Assembly (NCBI GenBank): GCA_046290225.1
Contig: JBKAGE010000042.1
Location: 1-64,000, forward strand
Direction: 5' to 3'
Length of the DNA stretch: 64,000 nucleotides
From: Bradymonadia bacterium
Lineage (GTDB): Bacteria; Myxococcota_A; Bradymonadia; UBA7976; UBA1532
Both the position numbers and the translations under genes were made by a program. The notes under the pieces were generated by a model. It ran no database searches. It had not been told where the DNA came from and saw only the letters and a list, made by a program, of their open reading frames with translations. Below, piece after piece: positions 3,064-63,790 of the stretch (position 1 is the first letter of the stretch; each line of letters begins with the position of its first letter).

Positions 3064-6000
3064 TCAGCGCTTTTTGTCTTTGCGGGGGGTCTTCTCGACA
3101 GGCTCACCGGAGGACTCCACCGGCGACTCGATCTCGGGGGCAGGCTCTGGCAACGCTTCGGCAGACTGCTCTTCGATGATCAAGCCACCGTCCTCTGGCA
3201 TCTGACCCAAAGGCGGCTGCATCGCAGAGCGCACGTTGATGTCGCGCTGCGGGTACGGGATCTCGATTTCGTGCTCTCGGAACAACGCGTCGACGCTCTG
3301 GCGCAGATCGCTGATCAAACCCGGCAACCCTCTGATGCGCCGAGTCCACACATGCAGCTTGAAGTCGAGGCTCGAGTCGCCGAAGCCGGTCATCTCGACC
3401 CAGGGCCGCGGGCTCTTGAGTACGCCGGGGTGAGCCCGAGCGGCCTGCAGCAACAACCGACGCACGAGGTGGACCTCGGTGCCATAGGCCACACCCACGA
3501 CGACCTGTGATCTCACGCGCTCGCCGCTGCCCAGAGTCCAGTTCACCACCCGGCCGCTCACGAACTCGGCATTGGGCACGATGACGGTGACGGCGTCACG
3601 GGTCTCGATGATGGTGGCCCGGGCAGAGATGTTCTTCACCTCGCCCACCATGTCGCCCACCTGCACGAAGTCACCCTTACGAATGGGGCGCTCGATGAGC
3701 AGGATGAACCCGCTGATGAAGTTGCTGGCGATGTTCTGCAACCCAAAGCCGATGCCGATGCCGATGACACCGAAGACCACGGCGAGGGCGCCGAGGCCGA
3801 TGCCCACGGCGGCGAGCCCCAGGGCGATGCCCAGAGCGACGACGATGTAGCGTGAGATGGTGCCGATGGCGTCCCGCAAGCCTCGATCGACGCGGAAGTG
3901 ATCGAGCAGGTGATCAGAGATGAAGACCTGCAACAAACGCCCGATATAGACAGCGGCGACGACCCAGACAGCGAGCTGGGCCAACGACCATAGCGAGACC
4001 TCGTTCTCACCCACCATGAAGAGGGGTGAGGTGGCCCACTCGAGCAGGCTCGCCAACTCGACGGGCAGCAACCACACGTACTCGGCGGTGAGCACACCAG
4101 CTGCGAGCCACAGGCCGCCGATGCCGGCGAGGTAGGTCAACAGCCCCAGCGTGTTCCGCAACCGCGGCCATTTGACCCGCACCCAGGCCTGGAACAGCGT
4201 CTCGTCGGCGGCGGGGCCGGCGTTGAGCGCCGCTTTGGTGTCAGGCGTCACGAGGGGGGACGCATCTTGCTGGTTACCATACCCGCTCAGCCCAGTAGCG
4301 TTCTTGGTGGGGGCGCCGTCGGTGAGATTGTGGGTGCCGGCGATCCAATGAGTGATGCGCATCACCCACCGCGTCAGATACACCGTGAGGGCCATCAGCA
4401 TGAGGGTGACGAGGGTGCGCCACGCGTACCACCAGAAGCCCCGTGCCTGCCACGCGAGGCGCTCGAAGTGATAGCGGGCGATGTCGCCGAGGCGCTCCTC
4501 GGTGCCCTGCACCCACTCCATGCGCATACAAACGTCGGCGAGGCTCTCGTAGGTCTCGATGAGCTGCTTCTTGTTCTTCTCGAGGGCCTCGGTCTCGGCC
4601 TTCTTCTTGCTGTCCGAGTTCTGAGCCCGTCGCCACCCGTCGCACCGCGCCTCGCGCTCTTTCTGACGCTGGGCCATGGCTTTGGGATCGAGGAAGATGT
4701 TGAACCGCTGGGTGAAGGGCTCGGGGATCTTCGACCCGCGCAGCACCTGACGGATCACCTTCACCATCTCGAGTCGGAAGGTGTCGCGGAGCAGCTTCTC
4801 TCGCTCGAAGTGGATGTGCTCGTCTACATCGGTGCGCTGAAGCTCAAGCAGCCGGGCCCTGGAGAAGTTGCTGTTGTCATCGAGCCCCCCGGAGACCTGA
4901 CTGCGGAGCATGTCGAGCTTCTCTTCGAGGACCGGGATGTTCTTTTCTCGCAACCCCATGGAGCGCTTGAAGATGTTCTCGGCGTATTCGACGGTGCTGG
5001 GGCCGAAGTCCATATGATCCATGGCCCAGGTGAGGTTCTTCTCCTGGTCGGCGAGGGCCCGCTCGGCGATGAGCAGCTCGAGCCGGGCCCGGCGTGCCCG
5101 GGCCTTGCGCAGGGGTTCGAGATACTCGGCGAGCTTGCCGGCGAGGCGAGCCTGCTCCTGACGCATGCGCTCGTTCCGGCTGCGGTAGCCACCGGCGCGC
5201 TTGTAGCTGTCGGTGAACGCATCGACTGGCTCGATCTCGGGCCCCTCGAGGCTGGCCATCTTGGGCAGGGCCTGCACGGTGGCGACGATGTCGTCTTGAT
5301 CGCCGTCACCTCCGCCAGCGCCTCGACGCAGCTTGGCTTTGGCCAGAGAGACCTCGATGCGGGCAAGGTGCACGTCGCGGGCGAGCAGCTCGACCTCTTT
5401 GAAGGCGAAGAGTGTGTCTTTGCCCTCATTGGTCTTGCCTTCGGCCTTCTGAGCGGCCTCCATCTGCTCGAGCAGTGTGTTCGCCTTGTTGATGCCCTCT
5501 TCGATCACTGCGTGCTGAGCGCTCAACACCCGGCGTACCTGGCTGTACATGCCCTCGAGGCGCCGGGTGGACGCCAACAGCCGATCGATCTCCTGCACCT
5601 CGGCGGGGTGTGTCTCCGGGGTGAGGTAGCCCTTGGCCTCAGGGGCCTGAATGACAGGCAGGACGACCACTTGAAGCGCAGCGTCCGGCGGCACGGCGTC
5701 GGGCACCATGGCGTCGGGCAGGCCAGAGTCGGGGATCAGCTCGGCGACGGTGCCCAGACCGCCGTCGAGATCGACACCACCATCCGCGCTGCCGGCGTCG
5801 GGTGACACACCCGCATCGAGAGCGGCATCTGCGCCCCCATCGACACCACCATCAACGCCTGCATCAGCGCCACCATCCACACCCCCATCGAGGTCGGCAT
5901 CTGGTACAGCCGCATCGGGCACCGCGGCATCGGGCACCGCAGCGTCGGGGGTGGGCAGCTCGTCGGGATCTTCGATGATGGTGGGCACCGTCCACAGACG

Positions 6001-37794: not shown

Positions 37795-37882
37795 GTCTTC
37801 ATGGTCAAGTGATCGGTGATTCGAGTCGTGCACCCGATTTCTGACATGACCCCTCTCCAAATGTGCACATGCCTGGCATTGA

Positions 37883-37945
37883 GAGGTCCTCACAAAACAG
37901 CTCCCCTCACCTTCCTGACTTGGTCCGCCGTTGTGTTGGGGCCTC
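37883..37945. mobile_element. Internally deleted 63-bp copy of MITE family A
   Basis: Ends GAGGTCCTCACAAAACAGCTCCC and GGTCCGCCGTTGTGTTGGGGCCTC match the 159-bp copies; flanked by TGA on both sides. Confidence 0.75.
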
Positions 37946-38537
37946 TGACGGCGACCTTTGTTTGGTAGCCCTCAACCTGCCCCCAAAGTTTTCTGTGAGA
38001 AAAAAACCAATAGAATTCAACGCTGTCATCAAAAAACGCTCACCATAGCTTGCATCAATACATACTCACTGTTAACGTTCGCACGTCCAGAGAGACACAC
38101 CTCACCTATAAGGTTGGTTTACCGTGCAGTTCGTCGCCCACCATATGTGCATACCTCACCCCGTGATGCCTGGATGTCCAGGCCATCACCCACAGGTGAA
38201 TTGTATGTTGGCCCGGCCTATGCCGGGGCAGCGCTGACGACACCGGTTGCGCCTTGCGCCCCGGGGTACCACCGGGGTTAAACCTTGAAAAAACAAACAC
38301 ATTCAAGGTCTACACATATCCCCCTAGAGATCCCGAAGACGCATGCCCGGTTTCACCGCGCTCCCCGATCTCGGACGCTGTTCGAGCGCAGGCCCGGTCA
38401 ACTCGACTGACCACCTGATCTCGAACCTGTCGTGAGGTGCGATGGGTGACGGCAGTCATCCATCGCATCAAGTGTATCGTTTCTGCCCATGGCAGAGGCA
38501 AGACACCGCAACTATAACCAATAGACACAACTATTTT

Positions 38538-38608
38538 GATGCGTTCCATCCGGCGATGGCGTGAGATTGCAACCCTCACTGTGCTGGGTTCGACCCCCAG
38601 ACGCATCT
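38538..38608 (+). tRNA. Non-canonical tRNA-Cys(GCA)-like gene
   Basis: Acceptor GATGCGT/ACGCATC, discriminator T, D-arm CCATC-CGGC-GATGG, anticodon loop TTGCAAC, T-arm CTGGG-TTCGACC-CCCAG; no encoded CCA. Confidence 0.72.
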
Positions 38609-38650
38609 CAATGCACAGCGCACACTGAAGCATGTGTGCTGAGGAGAGAC

Positions 38651-39568
38651 ATGAAACCGTTCGTATTCGACATGGAGACGGGGGATCCCGACGACTTCCT
38701 GACGTTGGCGCTGCTGGCGGGCCACCCCGAGGTGGATTTACGCGGCGTGACCATCACACCGGGTACACCTCACCAGGTGGGGCTCGTTCGCTGGTTTTTG
38801 GATCATGTGGATCTGGGCCACCTGCCTGTAGGCGCTTTCGACATCGACCACATGTCGAGGCGCTCAGGGCAGTACGAGAAGTGCGTGTCCGCCTGGCACT
38901 ATCGCACCTTCGGTGAGATCTCCCCGAGCCATGATGCCGAGACTGGATCTGCGGTGCTGGAGAGCGTCGGTCCCAATGTGGATCTCGTCACGGGGGCTGC
39001 GCTCAAGAACCTGGGCCGCTTTTACAGGCTGAATGACACCTCCTGGCCGGGCCCCCTGACGATTCAGGGCGGCTTTGCTGGAGACAATGTGGTGCCTCCA
39101 GAGCTGCGGCTGGAAAAGTTCGACGGCCGGCTGACCTGCCCGACGTTCAACCTCAATGGCGACGTGGCATCGGCCAGGCTGGTTTTCGAACGGGCAGGGG
39201 CTCATCCGACCCGCATGGTCTCGAAGAATGTGTGCCATGGCGTGATCTACGACCAGCACATGCACGATGAGCTTCGTGCCATGGCCGAGGCATCGGGCGG
39301 CCCTCACCTGGGCATGCAGTGGGTGTTCCGAGGCATGGAGTCGTATCTCTCGCGCCGCCCGGAGGGGAAGAAGTTCCACGATCCGCTGGCGGCCATGTGC
39401 GCCCTGCGGCCGGAGATCGGCACCTGGGTGCGGGGGATGCCCTACCGGGTCGAAGGGGGCCACTGGTCTGGTGAATGGGGGTTCGAGCCAGATCCTGAAG
39501 GCCCGGTGGAGATCATCATCGATTACGACCGTGAGCTGTTCCTCGAAACCATGTTGGGGATCGGCTGA
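38651..39568 (+). CDS. Nucleoside hydrolase (IUNH-like), divergent
   Basis: N-terminal FDMETGDPDD (cf. DxDxGxDD), TFNL.GD, C-terminal FHDPLAA; RBS AGGAG. Confidence 0.82.
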   Translation: MKPFVFDMETGDPDDFLTLALLAGHPEVDLRGVTITPGTPHQVGLVRWFLDHVDLGHLPVGAFDIDHMSRRSGQYEKCVSAWHYRTFGEISPSHDAETGSAVLESVGPNVDLVTGAALKNLGRFYRLNDTSWPGPLTIQGGFAGDNVVPPELRLEKFDGRLTCPTFNLNGDVASARLVFERAGAHPTRMVSKNVCHGVIYDQHMHDELRAMAEASGGPHLGMQWVFRGMESYLSRRPEGKKFHDPLAAMCALRPEIGTWVRGMPYRVEGGHWSGEWGFEPDPEGPVEIIIDYDRELFLETMLGIG

Positions 39569-39586
39569 CGCTCAGCAGCGTCATAT

Positions 39587-39655
39587 CGCAACGCGCACAG
39601 GGGGCCGGTGAGTTTCATACGCTCAGCCGAGCAGGTTCGAGTCCTGCCGTTGCGA
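39587..39655 (+). tRNA. Non-canonical tRNA-like gene with CAT anticodon (Met/Ile2-like)
   Basis: Acceptor CGCAACG/CGTTGCG plus A, anticodon arm TGAGT-TTCATAC-GCTCA, T-arm GCAGG-TTCGAGT-CCTGC, shrunken D-arm GCAC-AGG-GGGC. Confidence 0.7.
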
Positions 39656-39722
39656 CCTCGGGCCCAGGCAGAAGGGCGGGTGCAGAGGATGGCCCGCCCC
39701 AACTTCGCCATGGGTCCATCAA

Positions 39723-39796
39723 CGGAGTGTAGCTCAGTCTGGTAGAGCAGCACGCTGGGGGCGTGAAGGTCGCAGGTTCAAATCCTGCCACTCCGA
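39723..39796 (+). tRNA. tRNA-Pro(GGG)
   Basis: CGGAGTG/CACTCCG acceptor, GCTC-AGTCTGGTA-GAGC D-arm, loop CTGGGGG, GCAGG-TTCAAAT-CCTGC T-arm; no encoded CCA. Confidence 0.92.
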
Positions 39797-39798
39797 CA

Positions 39799-40030
39799 GT
39801 GTTTTTTCAGAGCCTGCCCTTCGGGCGCTTCTGCGCTCCTACGCCCTACGGGCTCCGTCGGCTCCGAAGCGTCCGGCCTTAGGCCGGACAGGCTCGCGGG
39901 CTTACGCCCGCTGTTCTCTCTTGGGGTTTCTGTGGAGTTTGCCTTTGGGCGCTCCTATGGCCCTGTCGACTCTGAAGTGTTCGGCCTTAGGCCGGACAGG
40001 CTCGCGGGCTGGCGCCCGCCGTTCTTTCTC
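39799..40030. repeat. Two tandem copies (one intact, one degenerate) of multi-hairpin repeat family B
   Basis: 39799-39920 and about 39931-40030 share CGGCCTTAGGCCGGACAGGCTCGCGGGCT; homologous to the reverse complement of 2895-2989. Confidence 0.82.
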
Positions 40031-40049
40031 GACTCAATGCACGCATCTG

Positions 40050-40610
40050 TCAACGCGACAGCTTTCCAGCCCAGTTGGCGAAGCCGGCCATGTACTTCAC
40101 GAGCCGATCGTGCACCTGCTCGTCAGTGAGCACGCCGTCCGTGAACTTCGACCCTGCATTGCCCACCATGAACTCCGGCCAGGGGAACACCGCCGCCGCC
40201 ATCCCCAGCAGAATCGTCTTCATATGTTGTTGACCGCGGGCCCCACCCACTGGGCTGCCTGTCACCGAGAGCACGCCCACCGGCGTGTCGCGAAAGGGCG
40301 AGTGGTAGGCTGGGCGGCTCGCCCAGTCGACCGCGTTCTTGAGCACCCCCGGCACGCTGTAGTTGTACTCCGGCACCGCCAGCAACACCCCATCCGCTTC
40401 TGTGATCGCGCGCTTCAAACGCAACACGCTCTCTGGCACCTCGGGCAGGTCATCGTCGTAGAGCGGTATGTCGCGGTAATTGTAGATCTCCACCTTCACC
40501 CCCTCGGGGGCCACAGTCTGCGCGGCGCGCAGCAGAGCAGTGTTGAGGCTGGCGGCGCGAAAAGAGCCCGACAAGGCCAGGATCTTCAGGTCGGATTTGG
40601 GGGCAGACAT
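40050..40610 (-). CDS. NADPH-dependent FMN reductase
   Basis: GSFRAASLN, PEYNYSVPGVLKNAVDWASR, GGARGQ. Confidence 0.93.
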   Translation of the reverse strand: MSAPKSDLKILALSGSFRAASLNTALLRAAQTVAPEGVKVEIYNYRDIPLYDDDLPEVPESVLRLKRAITEADGVLLAVPEYNYSVPGVLKNAVDWASRPAYHSPFRDTPVGVLSVTGSPVGGARGQQHMKTILLGMAAAVFPWPEFMVGNAGSKFTDGVLTDEQVHDRLVKYMAGFANWAGKLSR

Positions 40611-41317: not shown

Positions 41318-41340
41318 GGTGTCCTCCTCATACTGCTTTA

Positions 41341-41499
41341 GAGGTCCTAACAGAACAGCGGACCGAGCCAGGGGCGTGAGGTGCGAGTGAGACATCCAGA
41401 ACACCCGCAGGCGATGCTAAAGCATCGTCGAGGACGGTTTTGGATGTCTCGCGAAGTGCATCGCGGCTCTGGCGACGGGAGCTGTTTTGTTAGGACCTC
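41341..41499. mobile_element. MITE family A, 159 bp
   Basis: Perfect 12-bp TIR GAGGTCCTAACA/TGTTAGGACCTC flanked by TTA on both sides; inverted homologue at 63597-63755. Confidence 0.88.
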
Positions 41500-41565
41500 T
41501 TAGTGCTGTTGTCTTGCGATGAGATGAAGATAATCTTGCAACCTTGACCCAACAAGGCCCCGAAA

Positions 41566-45939: not shown

Positions 45940-46587
45940 TCACTCGCCTGGGGGGAGCCCTTTGATGAAGCCGAGCATCTGCTCGACGGTCTCGCGCCAG
46001 TTCTGCGCCCCGGTGCGCCCAGAAGATTTGCGGGGGACCAGGCTGTGATCTCCGTCTGTGATCCAGGCGATTTTCACCCGCTCGGCGAGGCCATAGCCGG
46101 CGATCTCTTCGGGCTTGCCGAAGGGGTCTCGGGTGCCCTGGCAAATGAAGATGGGTGGGCCGCTGCCACGCTGCAGGCCAACGATGCGATCGCCTGGGGG
46201 CTTGCCTGGGGCGTGGAACGGGAAGCCCAGGGCCATGACCCCGGCGCAGTCCCAGCCGATGTCGGCGATGTGCTGCGCCACCCTCGATCCCATCGACTTA
46301 CCCGCGAGCACGAGCCGATCTCTGGGCCCATCACCCACCACCTCGTCGATGACCGACTCGAAGTGCTTGACCAGCTTGGAAAAGCCGTTGGGCGGCCGCT
46401 TTTTGCCGTCGACGCGCCGCTGAGCCATGTACGGGAACTCGAAGCGCACCACCCGCACCCCACCGGCGGCGAGGCCTTCGGCCATGAACTGCATGAAGGG
46501 GGTGTCCATGGGGGCGCCGGCACCATGGGCCAGGATCACCGTCCACACATCAGGGCCTGCTGGTGGCCCATCGTAGATCAACGACAT
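45940..46587 (-). CDS. Alpha/beta hydrolase
   Basis: [36 protein letters not shown] overlap with spoVR. Confidence 0.9.
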
Positions 46588-49319
46588 CAGATCTTGTCGA
46601 AGGGGCGCTCCGAGGGCTTCTCGCCGTCGAAGCTGAGCAGCACGCCCTTGTCGTTGCGCTGGCTGGCGATGTGCACCGGGCGCTTCCAGACCTTGTAGAT
46701 GTTGGCCAGTGTGTCCCGGGCATAGTTCTCGTCGAGGTCGACCCCCTCGAACCGGTGACGCAGCAGCAGCTCCGATCGGTTCTCGAAGTTGGCGTCGTAC
46801 ACCTCGATGAAGGGGTTGCCCATGTTGGTGAGCTGGGTGAGCAGCTTCTGCTTCACCTGCTGGAACTCCCGAGAGGCGATCTGCCACTCGTCGGCTTTGC
46901 GGTTGAAGGCGAAGGTGAACATCTTCTGCTCGGCGCAGAACTCCGGGGTGAGGAACTCGTCGAGGAAGGTGATGTCGTTGTGATGACGGCGCACCTCGAA
47001 GATCTTCTCGAGCCCCTTGCCGGTCTTGCGATCCCAGTTGGCCCGCTCGGCCATGTCATCGCAGTTGTCGTAGTCCCAGCCATACTGGCCCTTGTCCCAC
47101 CGCTCCTCGATGTGACGGAACAGCTCGATGCCCACCTTATAGGGGTTGATGCCCCCGGGCCGCATGGCCATGGTGCCGGCGTGACGATCGGCGAAGTCGA
47201 TGACCTCGGAGTCGTCCATGATGTGCTGGGTCATCATCTTGGAGTGCCAGTACGAGTTGTGATTGATGAGGCCCCCAGCGGCATACCGGTGGGTGTCAGT
47301 GACCGAGATGTCATACACATCCTCGCGCCCCTCGGTGAGCGCCACCACCTCATCGAACCAGCGCTCAGCCTTGAACCACTTGCGATCGGAGACATAGGCC
47401 TCAAGGGCTGTCTGCTTGCGCTCCAGGCCGAATCCGATGCGCTCGGCGAAGGTCTTCGCTGAGGCCCCGGTCACGTGCACGTGCCAGCAACCATCTTTCT
47501 GACGGCGGCGGCGATTCAGGATGCCGTAGTTGAGCAGCAGCAGTTGCACCTGCTCGGCCATCTTGTCGCTGACCGTGCTCAAGATGACGCCCTGCTTGCC
47601 AGCGTAGCCGTCACAATCGAAGAGGGCCCGCAAGAACGCCCGCACCACTGGCTCAGGGGAGCGCAGCACGGCGTCGGGCACCTTCTTCTCGTGGGCGCTG
47701 GGGCCTTCGGTCATGCCCAGGCCCTGTGTGAGGAAGTCGGAGACCGTCTCTGCGTGCAACAGCACCCGCCACCGGTTGCCGTCGAGGCGCTGCGTGGGGG
47801 TCACCCCGAAGAGCGACTCGGCGAGTTCAAAGAAGCGCCGCGCTTGGGGCTCGTCCCCTGTCGTCAGGCCCAGGTGGCGCTTGCGGCGGCTGATGTGGCC
47901 GTCGCCGGCGAGGTAGCCCAAGAAGGCCCCGAGAGCCTCGTCGAGTACCCCAGGGATGTACACGCCCCCACGGCGGTTGAGGCTCTTCGCCGAGGCAAAG
48001 GTTTGGGCGGTGTCGTAGGCCTGCAGGGCCGCTTCGATGGAGTGTGCCTTGCGAGTGCTCTTGCCAGCGCGATGACGTAGGACAGTCCAGACCGAGACCC
48101 CAGCCTCGTCTGCCACGTCGTGCAGTGTCACCGACTCTGGGGGCAGCCAGTCGATCTGCACCGGCTCGGTGGCCCACATATCACCACCACCAGAGATGGC
48201 AATGCGGTCGCCCACCTTCAGCTCGTCGAGGCGCTTCCACGTCTCGTTGTCGTCGAGCAACACACGGTGGTTGTTCGAGCCGCACAGCTCCAGGCCACGG
48301 CGGGTGGTCACGGTGACCGTGTCGTGATCGGGGATGATGTTGCGATCGTAGACCTGCTGACGCTTCTCGCCGTCAAAGACCTCACCGGCACCGCGCTCGA
48401 CGAGGTGGGCCATCTCCACCATGCCCTGATCAGTGAAGACATAGGTGCCCGCGCGCACGCAGGCCCAGCCTTCGTTCATGATCTTGGTCATGCCCTGAGG
48501 CGCGAAGTAGTAGGCCTCTTCCCGAATCATGCCCAGCACGTTGCGCTGCCAGCGGGTGAGGGGGGCGTGCTCCATGAGGAACATCATGATGTCCCGTTGG
48601 GGCTCTTTGGGGAACCGTGGGGGCTGCTCCGCCTCTTTCTTGGCCTTCTCGCGCTGGGCCTTCACATAGTCTTCGGGGTTGATGAAGTCATCCATGTACT
48701 CCTTGGCTTTCAGCCGGGGCACATCGGGATCACCCACCAGCTCGTCGGGCAGATCAGTGGGGCGCTCCTCTTCGGTTCGGCTCGCCTTACGCTTGATGTA
48801 GGGGGCGTGCAGATCGATGAGGTTCTCGAGGGAGAGGGCCACGTCGATGAACTCTTCGACGTTGGTCTGGCCGAAGTGATCCTGATACCGCCGGATGCGG
48901 GTGGCGTGGTTGGCCATCACGTCGAGCATTTTGCGGTTCGTCTGGCTGAACCAGTAGTTGTTCTTGAAGAAGTCGCCGTGGCCGAAGACGTGGGCCATGA
49001 CCATCTTCTGATCGACGAGCTCGTTGCCTTCGAGCAGGTAGGCGTAGGTCGGATCAGTGTTGATGACCAGCTCGTAGATCTTCGACAGGCCGTACGCATA
49101 CGACTTCGACATGCGCTCGTATTCCATGCCGAAGCGCCAGTGGGGGTACCGCACAGGGAACCCGCCATAGGCAGCGATCTCGTTCATCTTGTCATAGGTG
49201 ATCACCTCGAAGATGGTCTCGAAGAAGTCGAGGTTCATCTCTCGGGCGAGGGCTTCGATCTTGCGGTTCCAGACCCGCAGCTCGTCGTCGAGGGGTCGCA
49301 CCTTCATGTACTGAATCAT
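46587..49319 (-). CDS. spoVR: SpoVR-family protein containing an intein
   Basis: [35 protein letters not shown]|intein|SYWH, NPYKVG. Confidence 0.93.
47256..48461 (-). mobile_element. Intein (402 aa) with LAGLIDADG homing endonuclease
   Basis: Starts CVRAGT, block [16 protein letters not shown] and [10 protein letters not shown], block F VYDISV, ends INHN before Ser; excision restores NEGWA-SYWH. Confidence 0.95.
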
Positions 49320-63590: not shown

Positions 63591-63596
63591 GCTTTA

Positions 63597-63755
63597 GAGG
63601 CCCTAACAAAACGGCTCCCGTCGCCAGTGCTGCGATGCACTTCGCGAGGCGGCAAAAACCGTCCTCGACGATGCAACAGCATCGCCTGCGGGTATTTCTG
63701 ACGCCTCACTCGCGCCTCACAACCCTGGCTCGGTCCGTCGTTGTGTTAGGACCTC
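63597..63755. mobile_element. MITE family A, 159 bp (inverted relative to the 41341 copy)
   Basis: GAGGCCCTAACA...TGTTAGGACCTC, flanked by TTA on both sides. Confidence 0.88.
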
Positions 63756-63790
63756 TTAGACTGGCCGCTGTGTCCGCAGAGTGAAGGATC

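Follow-up and report, generated by a model that had tools for sequence, protein, structure and literature searches.

A compact tRNA-like gene with the anticodon CAT (the CAT gene) is located at 39587-39655 of the window, the whole 64,000-nt stretch of Bradymonadia DNA that was analysed. The tRNA-like structure of this segment is confirmed, and its cloverleaf elements are intact to a degree far beyond chance. Judged from sequence comparison, the gene is held, with moderate confidence, to encode a functional accessory tRNA that has a compact core and a CAU anticodon and is probably a Met tRNA. The main rival to this interpretation is that the CAT gene is a decaying or dead tRNA gene, the remnant of an acquired accessory tRNA whose stems have been kept by recency and not by selection. 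Decay of this kind is rather unlikely, and several of the observations described below bear on it.

Structure and detection of the CAT gene

The elements of the gene are given here by their positions in the window.

39587..39655, + strand: compact-core tRNA-like gene, anticodon CAT, 69 nt
39587-39593/39648-39654, + strand: acceptor stem, 7 of 7 Watson-Crick pairs, with C1-G72 paired
C39594, + strand: connector of one base; position 8 is C
39595-39598/39602-39605, + strand: D hairpin, 4 pairs including one A-G mismatch
39599-39601, + strand: D loop, 3 nt, AGG, with the GG kept
39606-39608/39627-39629, + strand: extension of the anticodon stem, possible if G39626 bulges
39609-39613/39621-39625, + strand: anticodon stem, pairs T-A, G-C, A-T, G-C and T-G
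39614-39620, + strand: anticodon loop TTCATAC, with CAT at 39616-39618, T33 and A37
39630, + strand: variable region, 1 base if the extension forms
39631-39647, + strand: T arm, stem 39631-39635/39643-39647 with 5 of 5 pairs, loop 39636-39642 (TTCGAGT)
A39655, + strand: discriminator, with CCT next in the DNA

Exactly 15 nt (39594-39608) separate the acceptor stem from the anticodon stem. The initial annotation had described perfect acceptor and T stems, a TTCATAC loop, a 15-nt gap and a single mismatch in the D stem, and all of these details were correct. The canonical elements present in the gene are the 7-bp acceptor stem, the 5-bp T stem, the 7-nt T loop of the TTCRA type, and T33 with a purine at position 37 in a 7-nt anticodon loop. 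The canonical elements that it lacks are the two connector bases (U8, N9) and a D loop of 7-11 nt. Two features of a compact-core layout, the single connector base and the small D loop, are present.

The predicted folding energy of the CAT gene is -26.6 kcal/mol, with a z score of -1.0, and 36 of 200 shuffled sequences fold equally well. In the minimum free energy (MFE) structure the D hairpin is not formed, and the anticodon stem consists of 5 + 3 pairs interrupted by a bulged G, leaving a variable region of 1 nt. Without the extension, the gene has a 5-bp anticodon stem and a 5-nt variable region. The earlier proposal that the anticodon stem can be extended past a bulge agrees with the MFE structure, which adopts the extension with G39626 bulged. 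As judged from predicted folds, a bulged extension of the anticodon stem is likely in the CAT gene. The modest z score and the A-G mismatch in the short D stem are in favor of decay. Against it, none of the 17 pairs in the acceptor, anticodon and T stems is disrupted, and the gene still has U33, A37, the motif of the T loop and the GG of the D loop.

The level of chance matches was assessed with a strict cloverleaf scan, which accepted a candidate only if it combined an anticodon hairpin with 7 acceptor pairs, 5 T-stem pairs and a T loop of the TTCRA type. Three matches were obtained in the window, corresponding to the CAT gene and the two genes reported there by ARAGORN; 100 dinucleotide shuffles of the window gave three matches summed. 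When the scan was applied to the 8.58-Mb genome, 94 matches were found, of which 84 overlap 84 of the 96 ARAGORN genes. The CAT gene is among the other 10 matches, which fall at 8 places where ARAGORN reports no tRNA. The D region measures 18-24 nt in 86 of the 94 genome matches, as compared to 15 nt in the CAT gene.

Standard tRNA finders overlook the CAT gene, a result that would also be expected from a decaying gene. ARAGORN at its default settings reported only a Cys-like gene and a Pro gene (39723-39797) in the window and did not call the CAT gene; with -ps80 or in mitochondrial mode, it called the gene tRNA-Met(cat). Only the Pro gene was reported by Rfam at the gathering score, and RF00005 did not match the CAT gene even at E up to 10. 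Its sole match in the Rfam clan was to tRNA-Sec, at 16.3 bits versus a gathering score of 47. An assignment to tRNA-Sec was rejected on this score and on the lack of a long variable arm and of a 6-bp D stem; an eighth acceptor pair, T39586-A39655, is possible.

Host tRNAs, relatives and compact tRNAs in other genomes

The 96 tRNA genes found by ARAGORN in the genome represent most anticodons twice or more, and many of the extra copies cluster on contigs C20, C37, C42 (92-93 kb) and C79. Three genes with the anticodon CAT are called, all of them canonical: an initiator and an elongator Met gene on contig C78 and a gene of the Ile2 type on contig C41. Because ARAGORN finds about two genes for most anticodons but only three canonical CAT genes, the CAT gene would be the sole CAT member of the extra set. 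Since the host has canonical fMet, Met and Ile2 tRNAs, nothing depends on the CAT gene, and this is a further point in favor of decay. Elsewhere in the host genome (contig C14:27995-28067, - strand) there is a well-formed 73-nt tRNA with the amber-reading anticodon CTA, which ARAGORN labels tRNA-Pyl.

The comparison with the host tRNAs started at the anticodon stem and ended at the discriminator, giving 48 aligned positions. The CAT gene is identical to fMet at 30 of these, to Met at 26 and to Ile2 at 25 (52-62%), and its acceptor and anticodon stems differ from those of the host CAT tRNAs at many places. With identity at only 25-30 of 48 positions and many stem differences, the CAT gene has not arisen recently by deletion from a tRNA of the host. 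A simple D-arm deletion of host tRNA-Met, Ile2 or fMet, an origin considered in the initial annotation, is thus at odds with the comparison. Three genes in the genome scan combine a D region of at most 17 nt with a tRNA-like anticodon loop and further tRNA features: the CAT gene (15 nt), the Cys-like gene (17 nt) and a Trp(CCA) gene on contig C77 (14 nt). The Trp(CCA) gene has G73 and an encoded CCA.

The initial annotation had raised the question of conservation in relatives, and no counterpart of the CAT gene was found in the 112 other genomes of the class, either by BLAST or with a covariance model (R2) built from the CAT gene sequence alone. A BLAST search with 83 nt around the gene against 113 class genomes returned only matches of 17-35 nt that start at or after query base 24, none of which touches the 5’ strand of the acceptor stem. 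The R2 model scored 104.5 bits on the CAT gene; its other scores within the class did not exceed 33.6 bits, with host fMet at 32.9 bits. Matches of 69 nt to R2 in genomes G035 and G029 were rejected as homologs when they proved to be ordinary initiator tRNAs. A 1,341-nt query spanning the locus matched only the Pro gene in 40 relatives, together with two weak matches to a nucleoside hydrolase ORF located between the Cys-like gene and the CAT gene. The status of the CAT gene as a singleton, with nothing alike in the 112 class genomes, supports decay.

Strain variation was assessed from contigs of two marine DNA metagenome runs (X1 and X2) that span parts of the locus; no RNA run matching 38300-40000 was found. 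The copies of the CAT gene and the Cys-like gene from the two runs carry no changes. The X1 contigs comprise four pieces totalling 812 nt, with 24 changed letters and 2 gaps, none inside either tRNA-like gene; the changes closest to the CAT gene are at 39577 (X1) and 39664 (X2). The absence of changes in the 141 nt of the two genes, against about 3.6% elsewhere, is suggestive of constraint on their sequences. Taken alone, the 69-nt CAT gene gives a weak result, since the contig piece spanning it carries just 2 changes over 293 nt. The lack of changes in the two metagenome variants argues against decay. An X2 contig with a depth of 2 joins 39422 to 39541, skipping 118 nt in the 3’ part of the hydrolase ORF.

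Compact tRNAs were searched for more widely with covariance models and pattern scans, for which 263 genomes and 240 viral loci were sampled. A model (R1) built from compact Cys and Met genes other than the CAT gene gave the latter a score of 32.0 bits (E 8.8e-8 for a 20-kb search), although in a search of the whole genome with R1 the gene did not pass the first-look filter. A model of the Trp type (R3) did not reach it at E 0.001. Over 150 other sampled genomes of the phylum, the top non-self match to R2 was a 70-nt Met(CAT) gene in genome G235 (47.8 bits, E 1.3e-7); canonical tRNAs in the same sample all scored at most 41.2 bits. The G235 gene, at C80:33117-33186, is part of a 27-gene tRNA array (L259, G235:C80:27000-39000) that includes compact Arg(ACG), Trp, Met and Val(CAC) genes. 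The next ARAGORN gene past Met in this array is Pro(GGG), the same order as in the window. Between Met and Pro(GGG) the array also contains tRNA-like stretches with long inserts.

The two Met-type genes can be aligned over their full lengths, the G235 gene having a single additional base in the D loop (70 versus 69 nt). They share a single connector base, a D stem of 3-4 pairs, a D loop with GG, A73, and a 5-bp anticodon stem with 3-4 additional pairs predicted past a single 3’ bulge, which would leave a variable region of 0-1 nt. Their identity is about 62% over 48 aligned 3’ positions. The G235 gene has a mismatch at 1:72, an anticodon loop with AA at its end and a fully paired D stem, and it lies inside a long array. 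The CAT gene, in contrast, has C-G at 1:72, a loop ending in AC and an A-G mismatch in the D stem, and it adjoins a protein gene. Decay would not reproduce the predicted bulged extension, the 1-nt connector and the tiny GG loop that the CAT gene has in common with G235 Met. The initial annotation had assigned the CAT gene the same design as the Cys-like RNA. The shrunken D arm is indeed common to both; the Cys-like gene, however, has a 5-bp D stem and a 4-nt loop, and it is G235 Met that the CAT gene matches.

The MFE structures of the CAT gene, G235 Met and a viral tRNA (L372) all extend the anticodon stem by 2-4 pairs past one bulged 3’ base, and the folding z score is -2.7 for G235 Met and likewise for the viral tRNA. 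The middle pair of the extension is G-C in the CAT gene and C-G in G235 Met, which amounts to one compensatory change between two sequences. When five compact CAT tRNAs were aligned, 89.6% of cells pair and 13 of 20 pairs have changed on both sides; none of 500 shuffles reached this level, and slid controls were 30-48% paired. The extension of the anticodon stem is full in two of the five, partial in one and absent in two. In the other compact tRNAs, unlike the CAT gene, no mismatch interrupts the D stem.

Compact tRNAs were also found in a Myxococcus eversor array (L022), where the D region is no longer than 17 nt in 3 of 16 parsed genes: Cys (16 nt), Trp (14 nt) and Met-CAT (17 nt). Cys, Trp and Met are thus compact in both this array and the host genome. 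Pattern scans of viral contigs covered at least 120 loci each. Among the matches listed for the TTCATAC loop, 4 of 55 parsed CAT tRNAs have a D region of at most 17 nt, one of which (with a 7-nt D region) is probably mis-parsed. The corresponding number for the CTCATAA loop, again among the matches listed, is 13 of 89, including two identical sequences and several that are initiator-like. Compact CAT tRNAs therefore recur in phages, as both viral contig scans contain them. The existence of a recurring class of tRNAs with shrunken D arms, proposed when the sequence was first annotated, is supported by the compact Cys and Trp genes in the genome, by the compact genes of the Myxococcus and G235 arrays and by the compact CAT tRNAs on viral contigs. 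A BLAST search of the 69-nt CAT gene itself against 50,697 phage records gave no record with at least 80% coverage.

Gene neighbourhood and the nucleoside hydrolase

The CAT gene is flanked on the same strand by the following features.

38538..38608, + strand (38609 is the end given by ARAGORN at default): compact tRNA-Cys(GCA)-like gene, discriminator T
38651..39568, + strand: ORF of 305 aa, divergent member of the inosine-uridine nucleoside hydrolase family (PF01156; E 5.5e-14, 52.9 bits, cut-off 34.2)
39723..39797, + strand: tRNA-Pro(GGG), canonical-looking, Rfam 64.5 bits, 67 nt past the CAT gene
39851-39921 and 39959-40029, + strand: two copies of a 71-nt repeat, ending in terminator-like hairpins at 39896-39911 and 40004-40019

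The Cys-like gene has one connector base, a 5-bp D stem, a 4-nt D loop with GG and a D region of 17 nt, and its MFE structure is a cloverleaf with an ensemble frequency of 0.58. The hydrolase ORF, which is single-copy in the genome, starts 42 nt past the Cys-like gene and ends 18 nt ahead of the CAT gene. With spacers of 42, 18 and 67 nt, and with terminator-like hairpins only after Pro and none between the Cys-like gene and Pro(GGG), the Cys-like gene, the hydrolase ORF, the CAT gene and Pro(GGG) would be transcribed as one + strand unit. The two 71-nt repeats with their hairpins are the likely end of this unit. No sigma-70-like promoter was detected in 37800-40200, nor was a sigma-54-like site facing the operon; sigma-54-like matches with at most 2 mismatches number 19 in the window versus 35 expected.

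Pro(GGG) and its 3’ flank are paralogous to two Pro genes on host contig C34, with 86-88% identity over about 100 nt. On that contig (C34:374560-375760), three tRNA-like genes with long inserts are preceded by a sigma-54-like motif (TGGCAC, five bases, CTGCT). They are followed by the genes Pro(TGG) and Pro(CGG), and the 3’ flanks of these two Pro genes repeat the structured element found at 39798-40030 of the window.

The GC content is 0.59-0.60 at 36-40 kb, as compared to 0.63-0.68 in the neighbouring 2-kb bins. Other genes nearby are ordinary chromosomal ones, encoding a PilZ protein, a protein with a metallo-beta-lactamase fold, a cytochrome/TPR protein, pirin, LysR and PrkA/DUF444/SpoVR. 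In PHROGs, neither the hydrolase nor 7 of 8 neighbouring ORFs could be assigned to a family, and there was one weak match to an acetyltransferase; NCBIfam gave nothing above its cut-offs. A phage or defence context for the locus was rejected, as nothing phage-like was found nearby. The end of a mobile element, or an attachment site, was also rejected, since the 30-nt inverted repeat at 37882/41471 is part of a small repeat family spread across the genome and is not specific to this locus. Members of this family are about 160 bp long with inverted ends starting AGAGGTCCT and occur at 41340-41500 and 63596-63756, with a solo end at 37882-37911. The end motif has 93 matches in the genome with at most 4 mismatches, mostly as facing pairs about 140-270 bp apart, and the repeat looks like a MITE-type family. 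The SpoVR-like protein (46587-49319, - strand, 910 aa) has intein splicing and LAGLIDADG endonuclease domains in its middle and would, on this domain content, hold an intein.

Homologs of the hydrolase were examined at 80 genome loci and 80 metagenome loci. An ARAGORN tRNA is present within 2-2.5 kb of the hydrolase at 8 of these 160 loci (3 genome, 5 metagenome), and with so few the link between tRNAs and the hydrolase is not a general one. We judge this frequency to be little above the background expected for any gene. At 7 of the 8 loci the tRNAs are on the strand of the hydrolase. In M. eversor (L022) and a second Myxococcus species (L025), a tRNA array follows about 330 nt past the hydrolase, with 18 and 7 ARAGORN genes, respectively. 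The hydrolase has no conserved neighbour, the largest cluster of neighbouring genes being present at 10 of 160 loci; the 12 closest hydrolase loci searched contain no R2 match, and G235, the genome with the closest tRNA, has no hydrolase homolog. The hydrolase is tentatively treated here as cargo of accessory tRNA loci. The homolog in genome G006, of the same family, is found as two separate fragments (query residues 4-146 and 233-302), and decay of the hydrolase neighbourhood, of which G006 keeps only these fragments, is one more point in favor of a decaying CAT gene.

Unusual tRNAs were noted on three unrelated low-GC contigs, in each case on the strand of the hydrolase. On a metagenome contig (L153) the hydrolase is framed by two CAT tRNAs (1068-1147 and 2430-2504), one of which is initiator-like. 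At L125, a Leu(CAA) tRNA (252-336) ends 3 nt ahead of the hydrolase start codon. L192 has a 73-nt Ser(TGA) tRNA without a long variable arm and an Ile(TAT) tRNA (3538-3610 and 4242-4313).

The arrangement of the locus bears on a different explanation, in which the CAT gene is a tRNA-shaped element outside translation, serving either as RNase P/Z punctuation at the 3’ end of the hydrolase mRNA or as a decoy for proteins that bind or cut tRNA. The close placement of tRNA-like genes on both sides of the hydrolase ORF fits such a role, as do the paired CAT tRNAs of L153 and the Leu tRNA of L125. We regard it as improbable, given that so few hydrolase loci have an ARAGORN tRNA nearby and that the anticodon loop and discriminator of the CAT gene have been kept in a chargeable state. 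Y-RNA-like tRNA mimics (YrlA and relatives) were considered and rejected, as the CAT gene has no such Rfam match and no Ro60-type domain was found in 20 ORFs at 22.6-52.6 kb; the scan of these neighbouring ORFs also revealed no RNA-repair gene. The decoy role put forward in the initial annotation likewise found nothing in its support. A function of this kind would in any case be compatible with a role in translation.

Identity and proposed function of the encoded tRNA

The features of an initiator, a 1:72 mismatch and three consecutive G-C pairs, are both present in host fMet on C78 and absent in the CAT gene. The claim that the gene does not encode an initiator therefore stands, with C1-G72 paired and no three G-C pairs beside the anticodon loop. 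A CAU anticodon together with A73 fits MetRS by E. coli identity rules. The determinants for TilS in E. coli are C4:G69 and C5:G68; the pairs at 4:69 and 5:68 are A-T in the CAT gene and C-G in host Ile2. From these sequence features, Met is favoured over Ile2 as the identity of the CAT gene.

An alternative with only a slim chance of being correct is that the CAT gene encodes a functional compact tRNA-Ile2, in which C34 would be converted to lysidine by TilS for the reading of AUA. Its anticodon loop ends in AC like that of host Ile2 on C41, unlike those of host Met and fMet, which end in AA, and the discriminator A73 fits Ile2 and Met alike. The A-T pairs at the TilS positions argue against this identity, as does the ranking by model score, in which Met-type array genes come closest.

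Precedents for a compact core are found in two known tRNAs. Mammalian mt-tRNA-Ser(UCN) of type I retains G18-G19 and the T-loop motifs, which support its L shape, and resembles the CAT gene in its single base between the acceptor and D stems, small D loop and, if the predicted extension forms in the CAT gene, elongated anticodon stem and very short variable region (PMC7609411). It differs in being organellar and specific for serine, with an uninterrupted 6-bp anticodon stem and a 3-nt variable region (PMC7609411), whereas the CAT gene is bacterial and chromosomal and has CAU and, if the extension forms, a bulged extended stem and a 1-nt variable region. The same source describes in tRNA-Pyl a compact core with a small D loop and short variable region, as in the CAT gene, and in that of Methanomethylophilus alvus an anticodon stem that is broken by one unpaired base on the 3’ side (PMC7609411), as predicted for the CAT gene. 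However, tRNA-Pyl is without G18-G19 and the T-loop motifs and has a CUA anticodon and its own synthetase (PMC7609411); the CAT gene retains both motifs and, with its sense anticodon, would be served by a standard synthetase.

A precedent for the genomic setting is the tRNA operon of Anabaena, which, like the CAT gene locus, represents an extra tRNA set beside the housekeeping set (PMC8421152). Under translational stress, 23 of its 26 extra tRNAs were detected and charged in vivo (PMC8421152). The other three behaved as pseudogenes (PMC8421152), a proportion that lends some support to decay of the CAT gene. The available text of that paper does not mention the D arm or D loop. The locus studied here, in contrast, is not an array, with only three tRNA-like genes and one ORF in 1.3 kb, and it was rejected as a tRNA array unit, or L-array, a term applied to at least 20 tRNA genes at a density of at least 2 per kb (PMC4758250). 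No description of tRNAs with shrunken D arms in bacterial tRNA arrays or phages was found in open-access literature text.

If the CAT gene is a functional accessory tRNA, its RNA would be excised from the + strand transcript by RNase P and 3’ nucleases. CCA would then be added, an addition that is needed because the DNA encodes ACCT after the acceptor stem. The GG of the D loop, together with the canonical T loop, would give the RNA its L shape, in the manner of type I mt-tRNA-Ser(UCN). MetRS would recognise it through CAU and A73, and it would read AUG as an elongator. It could then be the Met member of a second set of tRNAs, maybe for use when translation is stressed or tRNAs are damaged, as in the Anabaena operon.

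A broader proposal, which we put forward as speculative and think quite unlikely to hold in full, is that bacteria and phages possess a parallel, unannotated class of compact-core elongator tRNAs that are charged by ordinary synthetases and active on the ribosome but are poor substrates for enzymes that recognise the core; at this locus the hydrolase, framed by two such tRNAs, would be a working partner and not a passenger. If this were true, the core-recognising enzymes that use such tRNAs poorly would include tRNA-cutting nucleases of defence or stress responses.

Textbook exceptions to the tRNA shape are tRNA-Sec, tRNA-Pyl and allo-tRNAs. If the CAT tRNA of this free-living bacterium were charged by a standard synthetase, bacterial RNase P, the CCA enzyme, MetRS, EF-Tu and the ribosome would prove to accept a broader set of tRNA shapes than is known today. 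Compact tRNAs of this type would then be natural scaffolds for the engineering of orthogonal tRNAs, and the tRNA counts obtained with standard finders would be overlooking members of accessory tRNA sets.
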